A stretch of 64,000 nucleotides of DNA, taken from contig NZ_JAAHIH010000001.1 in the NCBI RefSeq assembly GCF_010671925.1, forward strand, positions 741,053-805,052, read 5' to 3'. The DNA comes from Moorena sp. SIOASIH. Its GTDB lineage: Bacteria > Cyanobacteriota > Cyanobacteriia > Cyanobacteriales > Coleofasciculaceae. Of the stretch, positions 5,745-63,290 are shown piece by piece. The translations under genes were made by a program, and so were the position numbers. Numbering within the stretch: position 1 is the first letter of the stretch; the number at the start of each line of letters is the position of its first letter. The notes beneath the pieces were generated by a model. It saw nothing but the letters and a program-made list of their open reading frames with translations. It did not search any database and had not been told where the DNA came from.

Positions 5745-7613
5745 ATGAAAAACCCCTTAATAATTATTTGTATTGATAATGAACCATCAGTTCTCAATAG
5801 CCTGAAAATATCTCTACGTAAGACTCTCGGCCAAGAATATATGATTGAAAATTTGGAAGGGAGTAAAGCGGTTGTAAACTTAGTGGAAGAGTTGCGCAAT
5901 GATGAGTCTGAAGTTGCTTTAGTTTTGGGTGGTGCTGTTATCCCTGATTTAAAAGGGGATGACTTATTAAACATAGCTTATTTTTTCTCTAACCAAACTC
6001 TCAAAATTATGCTGACGGGTGATCTGGATTTGAAAGCTACAGCCAAGGCTATTCGGTATGCAAAGTTATATCGTTACCTAGGGAAGCCTTGTCCATCTGA
6101 AGACCTGAAATTGACAGTCATAGAAGCCATACATAGTTATCTTCTTGAGGAAACACTGAAGGAACAAAATCGCCAACTTCAGGAACTAAATCAGCACTTG
6201 GAAAAAATAATCTGTGATCAAGCAGCACAGATTTCAGAATATACTACAGCACCAGAACAAGCTAATCAAGAGTGGCAGCACCTGAGTGCTATAAACCGTC
6301 AACAAACTGTCCTAGTTGACGAACTGCTAGAGAACCAGTATCAATTGACCCAGTTTCTAGAAAGGATGCCCGTGGGTGTGGCTGTTTTTAATGATAAGGG
6401 GATACTAGAATTCCTCAATTATAAGGCGCGGCAGTTATTAGGCAAGGGAGTCGTGCCATTAACTACAGCTGACCAAATGCCAGAGGTTTATCAACTTTAT
6501 GTTGCCGGAACCAATCAGCTATACTTTGCTGAAAAATTAGTTGCTGTAAAGGCATTAAAAGGTGAAAACGCCACCCTGGATGATCTTGAAATCCACCAAG
6601 GAGACAAAATTATCCCTATAGAAAGTTGGGGAACACCTATCTTTAATGAATTGGGCAACATTGCCTATGCTATCGTAGCCTTTCACGATATCACCCAACG
6701 CAAAAAAGCAGAAGCAGAACACCTACGCTTGATCCAGGAATTCTCGCAAGTCAATCAAGCTTATGAAAGCTTTGTCCCCCATCAGTTTCTCCAGTTATTG
6801 AACAAACCAAGCATTGTCGATGTCCAATTAGGGGATCATGTTCAGCAAGAGATGTCGGTGCTATTTTCCGATATTCGCTCCTTTAGCACCCTATCGGAAA
6901 GTATGACACCCGAGGAAAATTTTGAATTTATCAATACCTATCTTTCTCGTATGGAATCTGCCATCACTGGAAATCATGGCTTTATTGATAAATACATGGG
7001 GGATGGTATTATGGCTCTGTTTAACGAAAGTGCTAATCATGCGGTCAACGCCGGAATTGCTATGCTCAAATCCCTAGCTGACTATAATCAATCTCGGCGA
7101 AGCTCAGGACACCCAGCCATCACCGTTGGGATTGGCATCAATACTGGTTCGTTGATGCTAGGAGCAGTGGGAGGAAAAAATCGGATGGATAGCACTGTCA
7201 TCAGCGATGGGGTCAATTTAGCGTCTCGTTTAGAAGAATTAACCAAACGTTATGGGGTGCCGTTATTAATCACTCACCATACTTATTGGAAGTTAGATAA
7301 TCCCTTAGCGTATGCCATTCGCTTGATTGATCGGGTACCAGTCAAGGGCAAATCCGAAATGGTGACAGTTTATGAAATCTTTGATGCCGATGAACCGCAA
7401 CTGCGAGAGGGTAAGTTAATTACTCGCAGCAAATTTGAACAAGCCTTGGTACTTTATAATCTCCGTTATTTCTCCAAGGCATCAGTTCTGTTTCAGGAAT
7501 GTCTACGCTTGAATCCAGGAGATAGTGTAGCACAAATTTATCTTGGACAATGTCAACTTCATACTCGCCTCTCTGGAGTGACTAAAATCAAGCAACACTT
7601 AAAATATAGTTGA
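5745..7613 (+). CDS. Receiver(REC)-PAS-class III adenylate/guanylate cyclase with a C-terminal TPR-like tail.
   Basis: N-terminal CheY-like fold. Cyclase homology-domain motifs FSDIRSFSTLSE, MGDGIMALF and VNLASRLE are present. A PAS-like segment lies between the two. Confidence 0.8.
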   Translation: MKNPLIIICIDNEPSVLNSLKISLRKTLGQEYMIENLEGSKAVVNLVEELRNDESEVALVLGGAVIPDLKGDDLLNIAYFFSNQTLKIMLTGDLDLKATAKAIRYAKLYRYLGKPCPSEDLKLTVIEAIHSYLLEETLKEQNRQLQELNQHLEKIICDQAAQISEYTTAPEQANQEWQHLSAINRQQTVLVDELLENQYQLTQFLERMPVGVAVFNDKGILEFLNYKARQLLGKGVVPLTTADQMPEVYQLYVAGTNQLYFAEKLVAVKALKGENATLDDLEIHQGDKIIPIESWGTPIFNELGNIAYAIVAFHDITQRKKAEAEHLRLIQEFSQVNQAYESFVPHQFLQLLNKPSIVDVQLGDHVQQEMSVLFSDIRSFSTLSESMTPEENFEFINTYLSRMESAITGNHGFIDKYMGDGIMALFNESANHAVNAGIAMLKSLADYNQSRRSSGHPAITVGIGINTGSLMLGAVGGKNRMDSTVISDGVNLASRLEELTKRYGVPLLITHHTYWKLDNPLAYAIRLIDRVPVKGKSEMVTVYEIFDADEPQLREGKLITRSKFEQALVLYNLRYFSKASVLFQECLRLNPGDSVAQIYLGQCQLHTRLSGVTKIKQHLKYS

Positions 7614-7879
7614 CAAAATTTTGATTTTGATTTATCTTTGATAGCTAACAATACACTGTCGTTTTTGAGTCTGGGCTTGAATTAGACTAAACCCAAGATC
7701 AGGTAAGGCTTTTAGGTAAGCGCGATTGACCTGCATGTCACGCTAAAAGCGATTGGCCGTAGGCCACGCTAAAAGCGAACGCACTTTTTCTAAGAAATGC
7801 GGCTAATACCGCAATCAATTCCATCAGAAGCCCACGCTCAAAACGTAGTGCTAGCCTGGGAGCGTCACCTAACTTGGTA

Positions 7880-34864: not shown

Positions 34865-35995
34865 TCAAAAGCTACATACTTCCAGGCAATCGAGTATATA
34901 TCTAGCCGCATCTACAAATACCATATCCAGATACTGAAACTGATCCGGATGCAGCTGGGAGCGCAACTCATCCCAAGCCTGTTCATCCTCAATATCTTCA
35001 TGCCTAAATCCTGCCTCCAGCACTGCTGTATACCTGGAATCAATCCCCAGATGCTTAGCCACTATGTGTAAATAGTCCTGCTCAGTAGGGTCAATTTCTC
35101 CATCCGCCGCTGACATATCATAGGCAAAGCACAACAGGAGTAGCTTCTCAGCATCGCTTAGAGGCTTAGTCAAAGTTAACCATTCGGGGCAATTAGACCC
35201 AGTAGGGTTCCGCTGAACTTGCCGAAGCAGAAGTCCGATTAAGAACGGTCCCAATTGACGCAAATCATCCTCTTCGGGAGGCGTTAAGCGGTCAATGGTT
35301 TTTGCCAGCAGCTGTCTTTCTTCTTCTACCACTTGACCATCCGCCAACATCACTTCCAAGGAAATAGTCACCAAGGCTACCAAAAAAATCATGGTTGGTG
35401 TAATATCTAACAGACTCAGTTGCCTTCCCACAAGATGGGACAAGTATTCAACAACTTGCTGATTTACCAGTCGGATACCTAGAGCCTCAAACTGTTCTGG
35501 TTGCAGCTTTGATTGGAACTCTTCCCAAACAGACTGATCTGGGAAGTCCTCACCCTTGAACCAAGCTTCCAGCACCATTGGGTAGCGCGAGTCAATCCCT
35601 AAGGAATTTGAGGCTAGCTGTAAATACTGGCTTTCATTGGGGTCAATCGTCCCATCCACCGCTGACATGGCATAGCAAAAGTTAAGGAGCAAAATTCGCT
35701 CTGACTCAGACAGGGAGGTGGTTAGCTTCAACCACTGCTGAGGATTTTGATAAACCGGATTCTTCTCTAGTCCAGAAAGCAAACCCTGCACGAATTGACG
35801 GACATCCCTCTGGGGGGGGACTAATCGCTCAATGGTTTTCTCTAGTAGCTGCTTCTCTTCGTCCTGTACAACCCCATCAGCATACATGACTCCCATCCCA
35901 AGGGTTACTAGGGCAGCTAAAAACCTCACAGGCGGTGTTATATCGTCTTGAGTGAGGTTTCGTCCGCTTAGGCTAGACAAAAGTTCAATAGTCAT
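34865..35995 (-). CDS. Tandem TerB-like (tellurite-resistance TerB/DjlA-N fold) domain protein.
   Basis: Two internally duplicated halves, each with a hydrophobic segment followed by ADGxV/xxEExxLL and MSA(V/A)DG(T/E)IDP(N/T)E(S/Q)(Q/D)YL motifs. Confidence 0.55.
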   Translation of the reverse strand: MTIELLSSLSGRNLTQDDITPPVRFLAALVTLGMGVMYADGVVQDEEKQLLEKTIERLVPPQRDVRQFVQGLLSGLEKNPVYQNPQQWLKLTTSLSESERILLLNFCYAMSAVDGTIDPNESQYLQLASNSLGIDSRYPMVLEAWFKGEDFPDQSVWEEFQSKLQPEQFEALGIRLVNQQVVEYLSHLVGRQLSLLDITPTMIFLVALVTISLEVMLADGQVVEEERQLLAKTIDRLTPPEEDDLRQLGPFLIGLLLRQVQRNPTGSNCPEWLTLTKPLSDAEKLLLLCFAYDMSAADGEIDPTEQDYLHIVAKHLGIDSRYTAVLEAGFRHEDIEDEQAWDELRSQLHPDQFQYLDMVFVDAARYILDCLEVCSF

Positions 35996-36120
35996 TTTTT
36001 AGTTAATCCGACGGAAAGCCCCGCGCTGTAATCTTCGATTCAGCTTCGGGATGATAGTCGGGTCGGGGTTTAAGCAATTCAATACTTATTATTTGACTTT
36101 TATTATGTTAAAATAATAAC

Positions 36121-37389
36121 ATGAGTTTAACAATGAACTACACTTACCGTATTTATCCTTCGGCTGCTCAACAAGAATTAATGTTGAGATGGTTAGAAAC
36201 TTGTAGACGACTGTATAACCGTTGCCTACGAGACTTAAAAGACTGGATCAATAGCAGAAAGTGTCAAGTAGATCGTTGCTCCATTGACCGGGAATATATC
36301 ATGTCTGCTGATATTCCTTTCCCGGGTTACATGGAACAGAAGAGACAGTTAACCCAATGGAAGAAAACCGACCCTCAACTCAAGGCTGTACATTCTCAGG
36401 TGACACAAGATGTGGTTAAGAGATTGCATAACTCTTGGGAAGCATTTAAACAGAGAGGGCATGGTTTCCCAAGGTTTAAAAAGTACGGTCGTTATCAATC
36501 CTTTTTGTTTCCTCAGTTTCAGAAGTCACCCTTTGTCGGCAATCAAATTAAACTCCCGATGATTGGGTGGGTCAAGATTAACTTACATCGATATATCCCG
36601 ACGGGCTTCAGGGTTAAAGGGGTCAGAGTGGTTTCAAGATGTCGAGGGACAAAATGGTTTGTTGTTATTACTATCCAAGCCGATGTATCTGTTCCTGATA
36701 CTCCGTCCTACGGTAGAGCTATTGGGGTGGATGTTGGGTTAAATGACTTTTTGGCAACATCAGATGGCTTGAGAATTCCTAGATCCAAGTTTTTTGTAGA
36801 CTTACAAAGCGAGCTTAAATTGCTGCAACGTAGAGCATCCAGAAAACAGAAAGGGTCTAAAAATTGGGAGAAAGCACAAATTAAAGTTTCACGATTACAC
36901 CACAAAATTGACAACACTCGCTCCGATTGGCAATTCAAAGTCGCTCATGCTCTTTGTGATCAAGCCGACTCTATTTTTGTAGAAGATATTGATTACCGAG
37001 TCATGGCAAAAGGGTTTCTTGGGAAGCATTCCCTAGATGCAAGTTTTGGTCAATTCAGAGAGTTATTGAAATGGGTCTGTTGGAAAAGAGGGAAATTTTT
37101 GGCCACAGTAGACCATCGGGGAACCTCTAAACAATGTCCTAAATGTGGGGCCGAGTGGGATAACAACCTGTCAATCCGTTGGCATACTTGCACAGAATGT
37201 GGATATTCCAATAACCGAGATGTTGCTAGCGCAGAAGTGATTCGTAATCGTGGAATTGAAAAGTACCCAAGGACAATTGGGGAAAGGAAACCGCCTGCTA
37301 TTGGCGTACTGTCGGGGATTTTCAATCTAGATAAGTGCTACGCAGGAATTCCCAATTGTGAGATTGGGAAGCCCGCGCTGTACTCGTAG
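36121..37389 (+). CDS. tnpB: TnpB (OrfB_IS605) RNA-guided endonuclease-family protein with an intact RuvC triad and Zn ribbon.
   Basis: Candidate RuvC triad residues sit in GVDVGL (Asp), FVEDIDY (Glu) and NRDVASAEVIRNRG (Asp). Zn ribbon is CPKCG...CTECG. The N-terminus YTYRIYPSAAQ is TnpB-typical. Confidence 0.85.
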   Translation: MSLTMNYTYRIYPSAAQQELMLRWLETCRRLYNRCLRDLKDWINSRKCQVDRCSIDREYIMSADIPFPGYMEQKRQLTQWKKTDPQLKAVHSQVTQDVVKRLHNSWEAFKQRGHGFPRFKKYGRYQSFLFPQFQKSPFVGNQIKLPMIGWVKINLHRYIPTGFRVKGVRVVSRCRGTKWFVVITIQADVSVPDTPSYGRAIGVDVGLNDFLATSDGLRIPRSKFFVDLQSELKLLQRRASRKQKGSKNWEKAQIKVSRLHHKIDNTRSDWQFKVAHALCDQADSIFVEDIDYRVMAKGFLGKHSLDASFGQFRELLKWVCWKRGKFLATVDHRGTSKQCPKCGAEWDNNLSIRWHTCTECGYSNNRDVASAEVIRNRGIEKYPRTIGERKPPAIGVLSGIFNLDKCYAGIPNCEIGKPALYS

Positions 37390-37505
37390 AGTCAGCGTCG
37401 GGAGGATGTCACGTTTTGATATCAGTGAGTGGGATCACATCTCAAGGGAACCTGGTTAAGGCAATGGTTATGGGATCATCCATTGTAAGTTGGCTTAAGG
37501 CTTTT

Positions 37506-37545
37506 GTAATGCGATTAGCCCGAAGGGCGTTGGCTAGCGAACGCA
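37506..37545. repeat. 40-bp palindromic unit GTAATGCGATTAGCCCGAAGGGCGTTGGCTAGCGAACGCA, copy 1.
   Basis: Exact direct repeat of 37603-37642. Its inverse copy is at 27606-27642. Confidence 0.85.
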
Positions 37546-37602
37546 TCTTGATCACGTTGGTTTAGCAAATAGTGATGGGATCATGAAGAAGTTCAGACGG
37601 TA

Positions 37603-37642
37603 GTAATGCGATTAGCCCGAAGGGCGTTGGCTAGCGAACGCA
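37603..37642. repeat. 40-bp palindromic unit, copy 2.
   Basis: Identical to 37506-37545. The two copies are separated by a 57-nt spacer. Confidence 0.85.
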
Positions 37643-38221
37643 ACCAAGCTTCAGGGAGTAAAGGAGGGATCCCATGCATCATGCCTGCATAACCATTTTT
37701 GAATTCAAAATGCCAAATTCAAAATTCAAAATGAATAGCTTTATAATTTTGATTTTTTGACACCCAATACAAGCAAATTAATTCATTAATGTGGTATTTT
37801 TTGTAAGTATTCAGAATAATGCTTACAATTTAATTTCTATTAAGCTGGCTTCTTTGGGGTTAATTCTAAGAATTCTGTCACTGTACCAACTTTCCAACCG
37901 TTGGCTTCTAGTTGTGCTTTTTTTCCTAGCTCCATCCCACTAGACCTCTCCAAAAACTTTAGACATCTCCAATAATCTCTAATCGAGTCACAGCAATCAA
38001 ACTAAGCGGGTCAACAACTTATTGATGAAACCACCAGTGCTTTAGATAACCGCACCCAAAGCATTTTTTTAGTACAGTAGAGAACCTTTGAGTAACTGCT
38101 TAATTAGGAAGGGTTATTTGCCAATTTGATGGCTCGACAAATGGCTTAGAAAATTAATTATGAAACCATGAACTATCGCTTTTGGGGCAAATCATACCTT
38201 AATTCAGCAACACCAAATTTC

Positions 38222-40972
38222 TCAATTGCGCAGAATCAACCGTTGCCGATGAACATGCAACAAACTAAACTCCCGCTGCGCCACCTGGTCCAACATATAA
38301 ATAATATGCTCTGGTCGCAACATGGTGCCATCATTCAAACAACTCCCGACATACCGCAAAACCACCCCAGATTCCGCAACCTCCTCTTCACCATCTTTAG
38401 GTCTTTGGGATTCCATCAACTCGAAGTCAAATAAGCGATCGCATAAATTCACCAACTGCTTCTTACCCGACTTCGTAAACCGTTCCCACCAAATTTCCTT
38501 ACTACCCTTAATCGCTTCAATCCAACCCTGCCAGTCTTCCCAAGACACCGATGACATTACCTCAACTCGAATCAAATACTCCGCCTTTTCCAACAGCTGA
38601 GTTCCAGCAGGTTCCTTCAAATCCACTCCCTCAACCCCATACACCGGAATCTCTTCAGGCAACTCAGACACCAGCCTTTCCCTAAACTCCTCAACTGGCA
38701 TTTTCTCAGTTAACTCAAACTCCACAATCTCCCCACTACTAGAGGCTCCCAAGGGCAAAGCATTAGCAATCATAATCCGAGCATTAGCCCGAAACCCCCC
38801 ACTATAGCGAATTGGTAGTGACGCTCGTCTTACTGCTCTCTCAAACAGACTTGCCAAATCCAGATGACCCAACAAGGTCATATCCCCCAACTTCCCAAAC
38901 CAAACCCGCAGCCGCTGATCCTTATTAGTATTGGGTTTAAAGTGACCAGCAAATTGCGGAATCTGCGGCGGGTCAATCACCACATTATGACCAAAATCAA
39001 TCCCACACACACCACAGTGAGAACACCCATCAAAGGAACAATCCGGTACTGTTGCTGCATCTAACGCCCGTTGTAAATCTTCCTTGAGCCAATTCTTATC
39101 AATTCCCGTATCAATATGATCCCAAGGCAAGGGAGCATCAAGGGCGTTAAGGGTTGTTCGCGTAGCGTGGCCTTTTGGCCAAGGTTGAAGGGTTGAAGGT
39201 TGAAGGTTATTTGGTTGAAGGTTATTTGGTTGAAGGTTAGACGGTTGCTCTGAACTTTCAACATTCAACCTTCCAACTTGCAACTCTTCTACACCCGCCA
39301 TCACATTCCATTCGCCACTTTCTACTTGGCGATATTTCCAGGTCAGACCTGATGAAGCGATCGCATTTTCCCAAGCAGCAAATGCCCGATCCAAGCTTTC
39401 CATCCAGGCATCCATCCCTGCCCCCAATTCCCAAGCACGGCGCACCACCGCACTTAAGCGTCTGTCACCCCGTCCGACAAAATCTTCCATGGCCGAAATC
39501 CGAACATCGGTGTAATTAACCTTCACCCCCCTGATCTGACCAAATACTTGTTTGAGCAATTCCTGCTTGCGTTTAAACTCCGAAGTCGATACGGAATGCC
39601 ACTGGAATGGGGTGTGAGGTTTTGGGGTAAAATTAGAAACAGTTATGTTAAACTTAAGGGTTTTTCTGCCTTTAGCACGGCACTCCTGCTGCAACCAACG
39701 CACCGTTTCCGCAATCCCCAACACATCCGCATCCGTTTCACCGGGCAAACCAATCATAAAATAGAGCTTGACTTTCTCCCAGCCTTGCTCAAATGCCGTC
39801 TTTACTCCCCTGAGCAGTTCTTCATTAGTCAGTCCCTTATTAACAATATCCCGCATCCGCTGAGTTCCTGCTTCTGGGGCAAAGGTCAAGCCACTCTGCC
39901 GATTTCCCCCTAGGATATTGGCAATATTTTCATCAAAGCGGTCTACCCGCTGACTCGGTAGGGACAAGGAAATATTCTGATCCTTAAGACGATTTTTGAT
40001 TTCCATCCCCACCGCTGGTAGAGCCAGGTAATCGGAACAACTCAGGGATAGAAGGGAAAACTCGTTATACCCTGTAGCACGCATCCCTTGTTCAATAGCT
40101 TCCACCACTTTTTCTGGTTCCACATCCCGCGCTGGTCGAGTCAGCATCCCAGGTTGGCAGAACCGACAACCGCGAGTACAGCCCCGCCGCACTTCGATCT
40201 TGAGTCGGTCATGAACCGTTTGGATATAGGGTACTAGTCCAATAGCATAGGCAGGCATCGGTGTAGCCACACGCCGCAAAATCCGCTTCGGCACATCAGG
40301 GCGGTTGGGTTTAACTGAGCCATCCTCAGTCATATCATAGAATTGGGGGACATACACCCCTGGTATCTGAGCCAAATCCAGGAGTAACGCTTCTCGACTT
40401 AAGCCAGCTGCTTTGCCTTCTTCGATTACTAAGCCAATCTCTGGCAACAATTCTTCCCCATCGCCAAGATCAACAAAATCTAAGAAATCAGCATAGGGTT
40501 CAGGATTCGATGTAGCCGTTTGTCCACCTGCAAAAATTAGGGGGATTTCCGATATATCAAACTCAGCACGGTCTTTCCAGGTAAGGGGAATTCCTGCCAA
40601 ATCCAACATTTCCAAGATGTTGGTTGCCCCTAATTCATAGCTAAGGCTAAAGCCAATAATATCGAAATCTGTCAGAGGTCGCCGATTCTCGACAGCAAAC
40701 AGAGGGGTTTGAGTGGAACGCAATTTAGCTGCCAAGTCTGGCGCAGGTAGATAGGCGCGATCGCATAACTGCCTAGGTTGACAATTCAATATATTGTAGA
40801 GGATGATATGGCCTAAGTTAGAAGCGCCCACTTCATAGATTTCTGGATAAGTCAATACCCAGCGTACCTCAGCTTCTTCCCAAGGTTTATGGACTGCTCC
40901 CAACTCGTTACCTAAGTAACGGGCTGGTCTGTTGATGTCTGCTGTTAGTATTTCCTCTACACTGATTCCCAT
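38222..40972 (-). CDS. B12-binding/radical-SAM protein fused to a C-terminal DUF2344-like domain. I recall this as the TIGR03960/TIGR03936 type. It carries an in-frame repeat-element insertion.
   Basis: Radical-SAM cysteine triad CTRGCRFC. 916 aa. The internal segment ...SSEQPSNLQPNNLQPNNLQPSTLQPWPKGHATRTTLNA is encoded by a heptamer array plus the GGCCAAAAGGCCACGCTACGCGAAC core. Confidence 0.7.
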   Translation of the reverse strand: MGISVEEILTADINRPARYLGNELGAVHKPWEEAEVRWVLTYPEIYEVGASNLGHIILYNILNCQPRQLCDRAYLPAPDLAAKLRSTQTPLFAVENRRPLTDFDIIGFSLSYELGATNILEMLDLAGIPLTWKDRAEFDISEIPLIFAGGQTATSNPEPYADFLDFVDLGDGEELLPEIGLVIEEGKAAGLSREALLLDLAQIPGVYVPQFYDMTEDGSVKPNRPDVPKRILRRVATPMPAYAIGLVPYIQTVHDRLKIEVRRGCTRGCRFCQPGMLTRPARDVEPEKVVEAIEQGMRATGYNEFSLLSLSCSDYLALPAVGMEIKNRLKDQNISLSLPSQRVDRFDENIANILGGNRQSGLTFAPEAGTQRMRDIVNKGLTNEELLRGVKTAFEQGWEKVKLYFMIGLPGETDADVLGIAETVRWLQQECRAKGRKTLKFNITVSNFTPKPHTPFQWHSVSTSEFKRKQELLKQVFGQIRGVKVNYTDVRISAMEDFVGRGDRRLSAVVRRAWELGAGMDAWMESLDRAFAAWENAIASSGLTWKYRQVESGEWNVMAGVEELQVGRLNVESSEQPSNLQPNNLQPNNLQPSTLQPWPKGHATRTTLNALDAPLPWDHIDTGIDKNWLKEDLQRALDAATVPDCSFDGCSHCGVCGIDFGHNVVIDPPQIPQFAGHFKPNTNKDQRLRVWFGKLGDMTLLGHLDLASLFERAVRRASLPIRYSGGFRANARIMIANALPLGASSSGEIVEFELTEKMPVEEFRERLVSELPEEIPVYGVEGVDLKEPAGTQLLEKAEYLIRVEVMSSVSWEDWQGWIEAIKGSKEIWWERFTKSGKKQLVNLCDRLFDFELMESQRPKDGEEEVAESGVVLRYVGSCLNDGTMLRPEHIIYMLDQVAQREFSLLHVHRQRLILRN
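39155..39245. repeat. Composite repeat (core GTTCGCGTAGCGTGGCCTTTTGGCC plus a (GGTTGAA/GGTTATTTGGTTGAA)n array) lying inside the radical-SAM CDS.
   Basis: Read directly from the sequence. It is in frame with no stop codon. Confidence 0.9.
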
Positions 40973-61559: not shown

Positions 61560-63290
61560 CGCTACAGTTGAATGGTATCGCAGGCTGTGGGCTGACTATC
61601 TAGCCCAACAGAATTCTACATAGAATTGTCCGGTTAAGTACAACATACTGCCGCTCTTCTTGAAGACTGGATTGATCAACGAAGTGATTAACCGGAGTTG
61701 ATATTACCCATAGTGACTACTCCCACATCAAATCAAAGATTATGATGTGGGCTTCTCAGATTTACAAATGAGACTTGCTGCTCGACGGCATCTTGTGCCA
61801 ATTTACCACAGCCATTGAGCGGCAGTCCAACCGCCAATAATCCACGATTTAAAATGTTGATGCCACTGTTCCAGTCCCTGTCAATTTTGACCTTACAACT
61901 GGAACAGTGATGAACGCGATTACTTAAACTTTTTTCAACTAATGAGCCACAATTAGAACACTCAATACTTGTTCCCCGTGGATTAACTTCCTGGACTAAC
62001 AAACCGCGTCTTACCGCTACTGCTTGTAATATCTCCAGGAATGCGCCCCAGGCTGCATCATGTATTGATTTAGCTAGTTTAGTTCTTGCGAGTCCTTTGA
62101 TATTTAAATTTTCGTGAGCATAATGGTCGTATTTACTGCATAACCAATGAGCAACTTGATAATGAAATTCTTTTCGGCAACGGGTTAAATGAAGATGCAA
62201 TAAAGCCACTTTCTTTTTGGCTTTTTCCCAGTTTTTAGACCCCTTGACACGGCGCGACATTACTTGTTGAGCTAAAGCCAATTTGTTTTGAGCCTTACGA
62301 TAAAACTGAGGAATAGGGATAGCTTCACCGTCTGAGGTGGTTAAAAATTTTTCTAAGCCAACGTCGATACCGACAGCAGATCTAACCGAATCCACAGGTA
62401 ACAGCTCAGGTACGGTATCATCTTTCATGGAAATGCAACAATACCAACCATTAGCCTTTTTGACGACAGTACACTGTTTAAGAGTAAATCCATCTGGTAT
62501 TGGTCTATGCATGACCACAGGTATTTGACCAATGCGACTGAGCAATAGAAAGCCATCTTTTAGATGCGCCCCCGCACGCGGGCTGTTCACACGTGGAAAC
62601 ACGAATGACCTTAATTGACCTTGTTTCTTGAAGCGAGGTCTTCCCCCGCGTAACCCATGCTTCACCGGCTTCCGCCATCTATCCCATGCTTTGTTGAGCC
62701 GTTGTAGGTTAACCTGCTGAGTTTCTGCGTAGATTTGTTTGTAATCAGGGAATAGCCGTTTAGTTTCCTTGAGAGCTGCCTGTTGGGTGTAATAGTTGAC
62801 CGCTTCTGGAATAACACCTATCGGCTCACTAATCAAGCTACATCTATCAATCGGTGAGCGAGTCCGATGGAGCCAATCAAGTCGTTGCCCTAGAGCATAG
62901 TTCCAGTGACGACGCAACAATTCGAGCCACCTTTCCATGATGGCTATCTGTTCGGGACTTGGTTTGATTCTGTAGCAGTACGTTAATATCACTATGCTAT
63001 TGTACCACTTACGTTCGCACCTCAAGCAGCGTCGGCTCTGCCGAAAGCGTGGCCGTAGGCCAATCGCGCAGGGTGACCTGCATATCAATCTTCTGTTTAG
63101 AACTTCCAGACGCTGTCGGGCAATTCCCCGGAGACGAAACCTTAGACAGGCTCGCCTTTATAAGCGACAGTCTGTGAGTCATAAGTTTAAGTTATATGAA
63201 ATAAGGCGAGCCTGTCTTACGGTAACTTCGTTCCCCGTTAAATGGGAGATTATAACGGGAGACCCCTTGCCCGTTTAGTTGGGTAATTAT
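61560..63290 (-). mobile_element. Second IS200/IS605-family TnpB-only element. The left end carries a subterminal hairpin at ~63142-63220. Boundaries are approximate.
   Basis: TnpB ORF plus a 15-bp inverted repeat AGACAGGCTCGCCTT/AAGGCGAGCCTGTCT upstream of the ORF. Confidence 0.5.
61733..62992 (-). CDS. tnpB: TnpB (OrfB_IS605)-family protein with an intact RuvC triad. The likely GTG start gives M/V-ILTYCYRIKPSPEQ; the ORF-track start at 63088 is probably an extension.
   Basis: Candidate RuvC triad residues sit in AVGIDVGL (Asp), AHENLNIKG (Glu) and DRDWNSGINILNRG (Asp). Zn ribbon is CSNCG...CSSCK. Confidence 0.8.
   Translation of the reverse strand: MILTYCYRIKPSPEQIAIMERWLELLRRHWNYALGQRLDWLHRTRSPIDRCSLISEPIGVIPEAVNYYTQQAALKETKRLFPDYKQIYAETQQVNLQRLNKAWDRWRKPVKHGLRGGRPRFKKQGQLRSFVFPRVNSPRAGAHLKDGFLLLSRIGQIPVVMHRPIPDGFTLKQCTVVKKANGWYCCISMKDDTVPELLPVDSVRSAVGIDVGLEKFLTTSDGEAIPIPQFYRKAQNKLALAQQVMSRRVKGSKNWEKAKKKVALLHLHLTRCRKEFHYQVAHWLCSKYDHYAHENLNIKGLARTKLAKSIHDAAWGAFLEILQAVAVRRGLLVQEVNPRGTSIECSNCGSLVEKSLSNRVHHCSSCKVKIDRDWNSGINILNRGLLAVGLPLNGCGKLAQDAVEQQVSFVNLRSPHHNL

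Follow-up and report, generated by a model that had tools for sequence, protein, structure and literature searches.

A TnpB-only IS200/IS605-type element with an omega-RNA-like scaffold lies beside host repeats carrying HIP1-embedded modules in Moorena sp. SIOASIH

We analysed a stretch of 64,000 nt from Moorena sp. SIOASIH (NZ_JAAHIH010000001.1, 741,053-805,052, forward strand), hereafter the window, in whose coordinates all features are given. It carries a whole TnpB-only element of the IS200/IS605 type at 36003..37412 (+, 1410 nt), delimited by blastn ends and empty sites, with a left edge that is uncertain by at most 3 nt. The element has a left end (LE; 36003..36120, +), whose subterminal hairpin at 36020-36055 is kept in relatives and matches the hairpin of the other end, the tnpB gene (36121..37389, +; 422 aa), and a right end (RE), whose subterminal hairpin (37372..37402, +) holds the tnpB stop codon, TAG at 37387-37389, in its loop. 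On the host side of the left end stands TTAG (35999..36002, +), a putative transposon-adjacent motif (TAM) and left cleavage or target site, and next to it is a gene for a TerB-family protein (34865..35995, −) with a 96%-identical orthologue in M. producens JHB. To the right of the element lies host intergenic DNA with two diverged ~95-nt tandem units (37450..37646; unit A 37450-37549, unit B 37555-37646; repeat families D1 and D2), followed by a radical-SAM/DUF2344 gene. A first-pass annotation of this DNA had treated the transposon and the repeats as a single structure. Very probably they are two unrelated things that stand side by side, a non-autonomous TnpB-only element and a pre-existing host flank with modules embedded in HIP1 sites.

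The TnpB protein matched three Pfam families above their curated cut-offs: HTH_OrfB_IS605 (PF12323, residues 1-47, 5.5e-11), OrfB_IS605 (PF01385, residues 192-296, 1.4e-19) and Cas12f1-like_TNB (PF07282, residues 309-374, 2.1e-16). A phmmer search of PDB sequences found ISDra2 TnpB (8h1j; 8bf8/8ex9/8exa; E = 1e-30 over residues 7-377), and by alignment to this solved protein the RuvC D-E-D triad is intact. In chain 8h1j_A, which is numbered as native ISDra2 plus 2, the residues aligned with D204 (motif GVDVGL), E288 (FVEDID, within FVEDIDY) and D367 (NRD, within NRDVAS) are D193, E280 and D363; these are D191, E278 and D361 of the native protein, its RuvC catalytic residues. The Zn ribbon CxxC...CxxC (CPKCG at 339 and CTECG at 357, with cysteines C339/C342 and C357/C360) aligned with CHDC...CPNC of ISDra2. 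The open reading frame (ORF) is full length relative to its relatives, and the window holds one copy of this TnpB subfamily. The first-pass annotation had named a TnpB-only IS200/IS605 element without tnpA that keeps a catalytically intact RuvC domain and Zn ribbon. This part of it held: the Pfam domains and the phmmer alignment agree with it, the proper alignment found none of the triad residues substituted, and the boundaries of the element fit tnpB alone.

The ends were mapped by blastn with window 35700-38100 as the query against 80 cyanobacterial loci with TnpB relatives, drawn from species-representative genomes (54-86% amino acid identity, the best in Moorena and Lyngbya). High-scoring segment pairs started at 35994-35999 in the closest relatives and stopped at 37412-37417 in ~58 loci; taken over the 80 loci, similarity sets in at ~35996-36003. 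Among these ~58 loci the similarity ends right after ...GGGAGGATGTCAC at 37412, 23 nt past the tnpB stop codon, and the right terminus is uniform at the junctions, reading ...GGGAG(N1-3)GTCAC with unrelated sequence directly after it. The element terminates in an invariant TCAC (37409-37412), and GTCAC closes 59 of the 59 sequences that were aligned. At the other end, conservation begins at (C/T)TA(A/C)(C/T)CCG, directly after a TTAG; at least 17 related loci with otherwise unrelated flanks have this TTAG without variation 5′ of the left end. Terminal inverted repeats are absent from the element. The two ends share a 36-nt direct repeat (LE 36020-36055, RE 37372-37407; 83% identical). It forms one hairpin, AGCCCGCGCTG...CAGCGTCGGGA, whose stem has a T bulged out and encloses a smaller hairpin.

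Orthologous sites without the element were found in three Moorena genomes, M. producens JHB (locus L081), M. bouillonii PNG5-198 (L095) and a second Moorena assembly (L094). The distance between the TerB gene and the radical-SAM/DUF2344 gene is 808 nt in JHB vs 2226 nt in the window (1410 + 816), and the JHB locus aligns to window 35900-36005 and 37413-38314 with nothing between. The junction reads CATTTT-TTAG-TTAGGTATTAGGGATTAGGTA-TTAG|GTTTTGATATCACTGAGTGGGATCAC in JHB and CATTTT-TTAG|[element]|GTTTTGATATCAGTGAGTGGGATCAC in the window. In all three empty sites TTAG is followed directly by GTTTTGATATC..., so that they read TTAG|GTTTTGAT without duplicated bases. The element is also absent from PAL-8-15-08-1 (L093), where most of the adjoining flank is missing. 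The end of similarity at 37412, together with the TnpB-free sister sites, defines the element as 36003-37412, inserted 3′ of TTAG with no target duplication and specific to this lineage. The insertion site itself is a heptamer array (TTAGGTA / TTAGGGA), with five TTAG in JHB (L081 ~5969-5995) and one in the window (35996-36002), and another heptamer array (GGTAATA/GGGTAAT) lies at window ~27850-27910. Arrays of this kind, which resemble short tandemly repeated repetitive (STRR) sequences, may present the element family with a series of TAM or target sites.

The last part of the element carries a 151-nt scaffold (37262..37412, +) that resembles an omega-RNA (also called right-end element RNA, reRNA), as judged by covariation in an alignment (A1) of the last 220 nt of 59 elements. 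Its helices lie at 37266-37281, 37294-37298/37342-37346, 37310-37320/37324-37333, 37351-37357/37362-37368 and 37372-37380/37393-37402 (+). RNAalifold arranged the scaffold into five helices with 35 pairs, and 25 of the 35 show compensatory changes. On this structure 95.9% of the cells are paired vs 28-49% when the partners are slid by 1-3 columns; double-sided changes were counted in 291 cells vs 84 ± 8 in shuffled alignments, and none of 500 shuffles reached the observed value of any of five measures. In the RE hairpin (helix 6) 6 of 8 pairs covary, and the stem does so across 57 distinct sequences. Several scaffold positions are mostly G-U (e.g., 41/57 and 55/57), and these conserved G-U pairs indicate that the fold is specific to the sense strand. 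The alignment's 29 invariant columns are all confined to 37271-37412, the protein matches of the relatives end variably, between residues 379 and 422, and five relatives have 45-50-nt insertions within the scaffold stretch; the conservation is therefore at the level of the nucleic acid and not of the protein. The terminal hairpin of IS608 and ISDra2 acts in transposition as the binding site of TnpA. By analogy, the terminal hairpin is the only part of the present scaffold with a known transposition role, and RNA is the best explanation of the four helices upstream of it. The insertions in the relatives are of three different palindromic kinds (~45-50 nt) and all fall at one scaffold point, 37301/37302, in the loop between CTGCTAT and TGGCG, at loci of different lineages (L027, L042, L052, L072 and L075). 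They look like small hairpin elements that land repeatedly, or are tolerated, in one loop, and as read from the sequence they would also change the C-terminal tail of TnpB.

A covariance model (R1, 151 positions) was built from 49 aligned sequences, with the window's own scaffold in the seed. It matched that scaffold at 37262-37412 with 164 bits, the 3′ end of a second tnpB at 61713-61823 (−), whose product is 37.5% identical to the first TnpB, with 49 bits (E = 5e-13), and the left-end hairpin at 36020-36050 with 18 bits (model positions 111-141); it had no match in 37413-37700. Rfam 15 found no omega-RNA family over the whole window at the gathering score, and at E <= 1 over 35900-37800 it reported NEAT1_2 alone (17.7 bits), which we took as chance. 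Consensus scans for promoters and terminators over 35900-37800 gave counts at the level of chance.

From the known architecture of TnpB and its omega-RNA, the guide would be the first 16-20 nt of host DNA past the right end, GTTTTGATATCAGTGAGTGG (37413..37432, +). This sequence has no second match within the window, and TTAG followed by the guide equals the vacant site in JHB and in M. bouillonii with 1 mismatch in 20 nt each. The target of the guide would thus be the vacant allele of the element's own site and not a distant genomic target. A guide that matches the vacant donor site is what the homing model of TnpB predicts (10.1101/2023.03.14.532601; PMC10690162). We propose that the element inserted, in a Moorena-like cyanobacterium, 3′ of a TTAG in the intergenic DNA that lies just upstream of a gene of the TerB family, and that the subterminal hairpins at its two ends are, by analogy, where a Y1 TnpA provided in trans takes hold. 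A transcript that runs through the right end would yield the scaffold plus ~16-20 nt of flank (GTTTTGATATCAGTGAGTGG) as the guide, and the complex of TnpB and omega-RNA would cut vacant copies of its own site, TTAG plus the guide. Repair from the filled sister chromosome would then restore the element, a form of homing or retention, and mobilisation would need a TnpA that acts in trans from elsewhere in the genome.

The DNA 3′ of the element (37413-38314) is 87% identical to the intergenic DNA of JHB. The tandem units A and B are 73% identical overall, ~60% outside a shared block, and 100% over that block, which consists of a HIP1 site and an insert. Both units are present in JHB, in M. bouillonii and in the second Moorena assembly, all of which are TnpB-free here. 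As this flank is orthologous in sister Moorena genomes that lack TnpB, the repeat-rich stretch is host DNA and lies outside the element. The two identical 40-mers described in the first-pass annotation are there, at 37506-37545 and 37603-37642, 57 nt apart, with zero such matches expected by chance. They had been called palindromic, and they do hold nested, imperfect inverted repeats (TGCG..CGCA, TAGCC..GGCTA and GCCC..GGGC), but they fold no better than shuffled sequences (z = +0.34 and −1.05), and for this reason we dropped the idea of a strong palindrome or terminator. Of the GGGATCA(C/T) motif, described as reiterated, there are three exact copies of GGGATCA (37431, 37472 and 37577), but the fourth reads GGGATCC, a different motif, the window shows no enrichment of GGGATCA (11 found vs 7.4 ± 2.7 expected), and its positions are unconserved in orthologous Moorena DNA, which has GCGATCA, GCAATCA or GGAATCA there. 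The local cluster (37431-37583) is unlikely by a Poisson estimate (~1e-3), and two of the three copies stand at equivalent positions of the tandem units. Tandem Repeats Finder reported the AATTCAA array at 37702-37732 alone and missed the ~95-nt units as too diverged. A miniature inverted-repeat transposable element with the 10-bp ends AATGGTTATG (~37462) and CATAACCATT (~37688) was also considered and rejected, since the whole stretch is syntenic host DNA in the sister genomes.

The identity of the two 40-mers results from a 26-nt insert in both HIP1 sites. The module TAGCCCGAAGGGCGTTGGCTAGCGAA occupies the HIP1 site (GCGAT|CGC) of unit A at 37516..37541 (+), and an identical module occupies that of unit B at 37613..37638 (+). 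At unit A, JHB, M. bouillonii PNG and the second Moorena assembly all have plain GCGATCGC; at unit B, JHB again has plain GCGATCGC, and M. bouillonii PNG and the second assembly carry the module with 100% identity. Both sites are therefore empty in JHB, unit A is empty and unit B filled in M. bouillonii PNG and the second assembly, and both are filled in the window. The units of JHB read as the plain HIP1 octamer, GTAATGCGATCGCA, and those of the window as GTAATGCGAT-TAGCCCGAAGGGCGTTGGCTAGCGAA-CGCA. The insert is 100% identical wherever it is present, and its flanks are 84-87% identical. Its net 26 nt are made of a 21-nt core with TAGCC/GGCTA ends plus GCGAA. HIP1 sites are frequent in the window, 21 vs ~1 expected.

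The same module, or variants built as GCGAT-[~21 nt that include a 4-5-bp hairpin]-GCGA(A/T)CGC, was seen at other places as well. An exact third copy lies at 27607-27640 (−), between HIP1 halves and 10 kb from any tnpB, and a variant, TGGCCGTAGGCCACGCTAAAA, lies between HIP1 halves at 7749-7782 (+). Further HIP1-embedded modules occur in the Moorena loci L090 (4724-4757), L005 (~2164) and L063 (5660-5699), and also in two Nostocales loci. In other Moorena the site that corresponds to 27607-27640 is occupied too, by a different variant, TAGCCCGAAGGGCTACGCTAC, and so is uninformative on insertion vs deletion. A related module, TGGCCAAAAGGCCACGCTACGCGAAC, at ~39150-39185 (−) is in frame inside the radical-SAM/DUF2344 gene (38222..40972), where it is translated as WPKGHATRT, and it adjoins a region of 15-nt tandem repeats that encode NLQP(N/S/T). 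The JHB orthologue of this gene has ~13 more NLQP repeats and no module (953 aa vs 916 aa in the window). The exact 34-mer is absent from the 80 loci, in which a mismatch-tolerant scan found one copy (L063). A metagenome scan for the 21-nt core gave 0 matches, and a degenerate one (GCGATTAGCC N8-14 GGCTAGCGA) gave 8 matches without HIP1 context, which we judged to be chance. In its described architecture the module is SDR5-like, and it seems to behave like the very small mobile repeats of that type.

Several observations weigh against the reading of the locus given here. A TAM role of TTAG would follow from its conservation and from the empty sites, and the TTAGTTA of JHB leaves the placing of the left junction open to a shift of up to 3 nt. 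The window is without ~25 nt of TTAG-containing heptamer repeats that are seen at the JHB site, and since the copy number of this array varies between genomes, the ancestral target is reconstructed and not observed. No Y1 tnpA lies in the element, and the 17 other window ORFs scanned, which are not an exhaustive set, gave no Y1_Tnp match, so that current mobility is unproven. The closest relatives among the species-representative genomes have ~81% DNA identity, and no identical TnpB protein was found in the assembly index. The candidate omega-RNA at 37262-37412 overlaps both the 3′ tail of tnpB and the RE hairpin, and its transcription, 5′ processing and guide length are inferred from the established TnpB model. 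At individual HIP1 sites precise excision instead of insertion is possible, and gene conversion between the tandem units could be the source of the window's second copy of the module. The lack of a nearby tnpA (in the element and the ORFs scanned) and the single copy of the subfamily in the window would also suit an immobile relic or a domesticated TnpB, for instance an RNA-guided regulator of the TldR kind, instead of a working homing nuclease, and a regulatory effect is conceivable for an element 7 nt upstream of the TerB start codon. We consider this quite unlikely, however, because the RuvC triad and the Zn ribbon are intact, whereas the published TldR proteins have lost catalytic residues (PMC10705468). 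The ORF is also full length, both ends and the scaffold are intact (164 bits), and four other Moorena genomes lack the insertion, which marks it as lineage-specific and not as a fixed host gene.

Hardly credible is the model of the first-pass annotation, in which the right end of the element extends through the repeat-rich stretch (37400-37660) to ~37660, takes in the GGGATCA motifs and the 40-bp units, and leaves the guide beyond, pointing to a target elsewhere in the genome. The local repeats are present, and 37200-37700 folds somewhat better than shuffles (z = −3.3), but this value is largely explained by the true scaffold inside the folded segment. The ~58 related loci end at 37412, well upstream of 37506, which is the outcome that the annotation had itself named as contradicting its view, and three Moorena genomes carry the whole of 37413-37700 without a TnpB element; everything from 37413 on is outside the element. 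The 40-mer, moreover, is also present far from any tnpB. The guide would accordingly start at 37413, not past the repeats, and the matches that a search for it elsewhere returned are the vacant sites of the sister genomes. The omega-RNA had been expected both at the 3′ end of tnpB, where the scaffold was indeed found, and in the repeat-rich flank, where model R1 finds nothing; the covariance-model search that the annotation had proposed yielded no Rfam family, and the purpose-built model matched the scaffold, itself part of its seed. With the flank taken as host DNA, the origin of its 40-mers can be weighed separately. They could descend from an old tandem duplication that already held the 26-nt block, with later loss by deletion at both sites in JHB and at one in M. 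bouillonii, a history that needs no mobile mini-element. The units are clearly homologous tandem copies, and the direct repeat GCGA(T/A) that flanks the 21-nt core could mediate a slippage deletion. Such deletions would, however, have to restore a perfect GCGATCGC three times, the block is 100% identical both between units that otherwise share ~60% identity and between species with flanks of 84-87% identity, and unrelated loci have the same or variant modules between their HIP1 halves; SDR5, in addition, is described as inserted precisely inside HIP1 (PMC4390886). We regard this history as improbable. A tentative idea to which we give somewhat more weight, although it too is doubtful, is that of an ultra-small mobile element of Moorena, outside Nostocaceae, that is active at present: the 26-nt block would insert precisely at the centre of HIP1. 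Its one short hairpin, its sequence-specific target, the lack of a clear duplication and a right end (GCGAA) that mimics the target (GCGAT) would fit single-strand HUH/Y1 "peel-and-paste" chemistry, by analogy with the IS200/IS605 elements, which are abundant in these genomes.

The neighbourhood of the element shows further traces of mobile DNA. The left end starts 7 nt upstream of the TerB ATG (35995-35993, −), and the native upstream region of TerB (808 nt in JHB) has thereby been displaced by 1.4 kb; judging from this arrangement, TerB transcription must now presumably start inside the element or run through it. At 61713-63088 (−) lies a second TnpB-only element, which belongs to another subfamily, with an ORF at 61733..63088 (451 aa, 37.5% identical to the first). 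Its product has OrfB_IS605, TNB and HTH domains, and the neighbouring ORF is DUF6464, not TnpA. Its right end (61713-61823) is a shorter omega-RNA-like structure that ends in GGAGTAGTCAC and is without the central 42-nt domain of the scaffold model. JHB has a gene at L081 7354-8634 for a 426-aa protein with RRXRR and HNH domains (an IscB-like domain set) between TerB and a pentapeptide-repeat gene, where the window has 165 nt, and a 485-aa TNB-domain (TnpB-like) gene at L081 11263-12720, which adjoins a vault-protein gene that is truncated there, its counterpart in the window being intact (879 aa). Elements of OMEGA type (short for obligate mobile element-guided activity) are highly polymorphic in this neighbourhood across Moorena genomes. 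The 879-aa ORF itself (30681-33320, −), a bacterial major-vault-protein homologue beside a ribosomal-protein cluster, has Moorena orthologues with Vault, Vault_2/3/4 and MVP_shoulder domains.

The value of the TnpB element lies in its precisely mapped ends, its empty site, a probable TTAG TAM and a covariation-supported 151-nt scaffold outside Rfam; these might be put to use as a candidate for a compact nuclease or to seed an RNA family. The eye-catching repeats beside the transposon are host DNA, a question that was settled by comparison with sister genomes. The HIP1-embedded 26-nt modules, polymorphic among Moorena, are a modest but real side finding and touch on a long-standing problem, namely what it is that acts on HIP1. 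If they are an active mini-element, they would open an experimental approach to the reason why HIP1 is recognised or cut.

The closest known counterpart of these modules, by description, is SDR5, one of the small dispersed repeats of Nostocaceae (Elhai et al. 2008, Genome Res 18:1484, as presented in papers that cite it). SDR5 is said in PMC4390886 to be precisely inserted inside HIP1 in heterocystous cyanobacteria, and 10.64898/2026.06.24.733823 gives it as 21 nt long and inside HIP1. It shares with the modules a length in the range of ~20 nt, a small hairpin and a precise position inside HIP1, to which the presence or absence at orthologous sites is added here. The modules differ in their host, Moorena (Coleofasciculaceae), and in the size of the insert, 26 nt vs the 21 nt described for SDR5, the two being compared by description and not by sequence. 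As PMC5861425 reports no SDR-like repeat outside Nostocaceae, the modules would extend SDR5-type mini-elements beyond the family to which they were thought to be confined. The modules also resemble repetitive extragenic palindromic (REP) sequences and REPINs, which are associated with the TnpA-like Y1 protein RAYT, in being short, hairpin-forming intergenic repeats that are possibly moved as single strands. We take this resemblance as a lead, since REPINs are longer paired units with a RAYT gene, HIP1 targeting is not a REP feature, and no RAYT or TnpA was seen here.

The TnpB element compares best with the ISDra2/IS608 type, in its TnpB-only (IS1341-like) subgroup. It has the same domain order, D/E/D triad and Zn ribbon, the same subterminal hairpins at both ends, the same insertion 3′ of a fixed short motif without duplication, and the same structured RNA over the 3′ end of tnpB, which stops exactly at the right end and leaves the host flank as the guide. 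It differs in having no tnpA and in a scaffold without an Rfam family. From ISDra2 in particular it is distant at the protein level (phmmer E = 1e-30), and the TAM of ISDra2 is TTGAT, whereas that of the present element is probably TTAG; our literature search found no paper that pairs a TnpB with a TTAG TAM. With these differences noted, the TnpB element is an ordinary member of a well-known kind.

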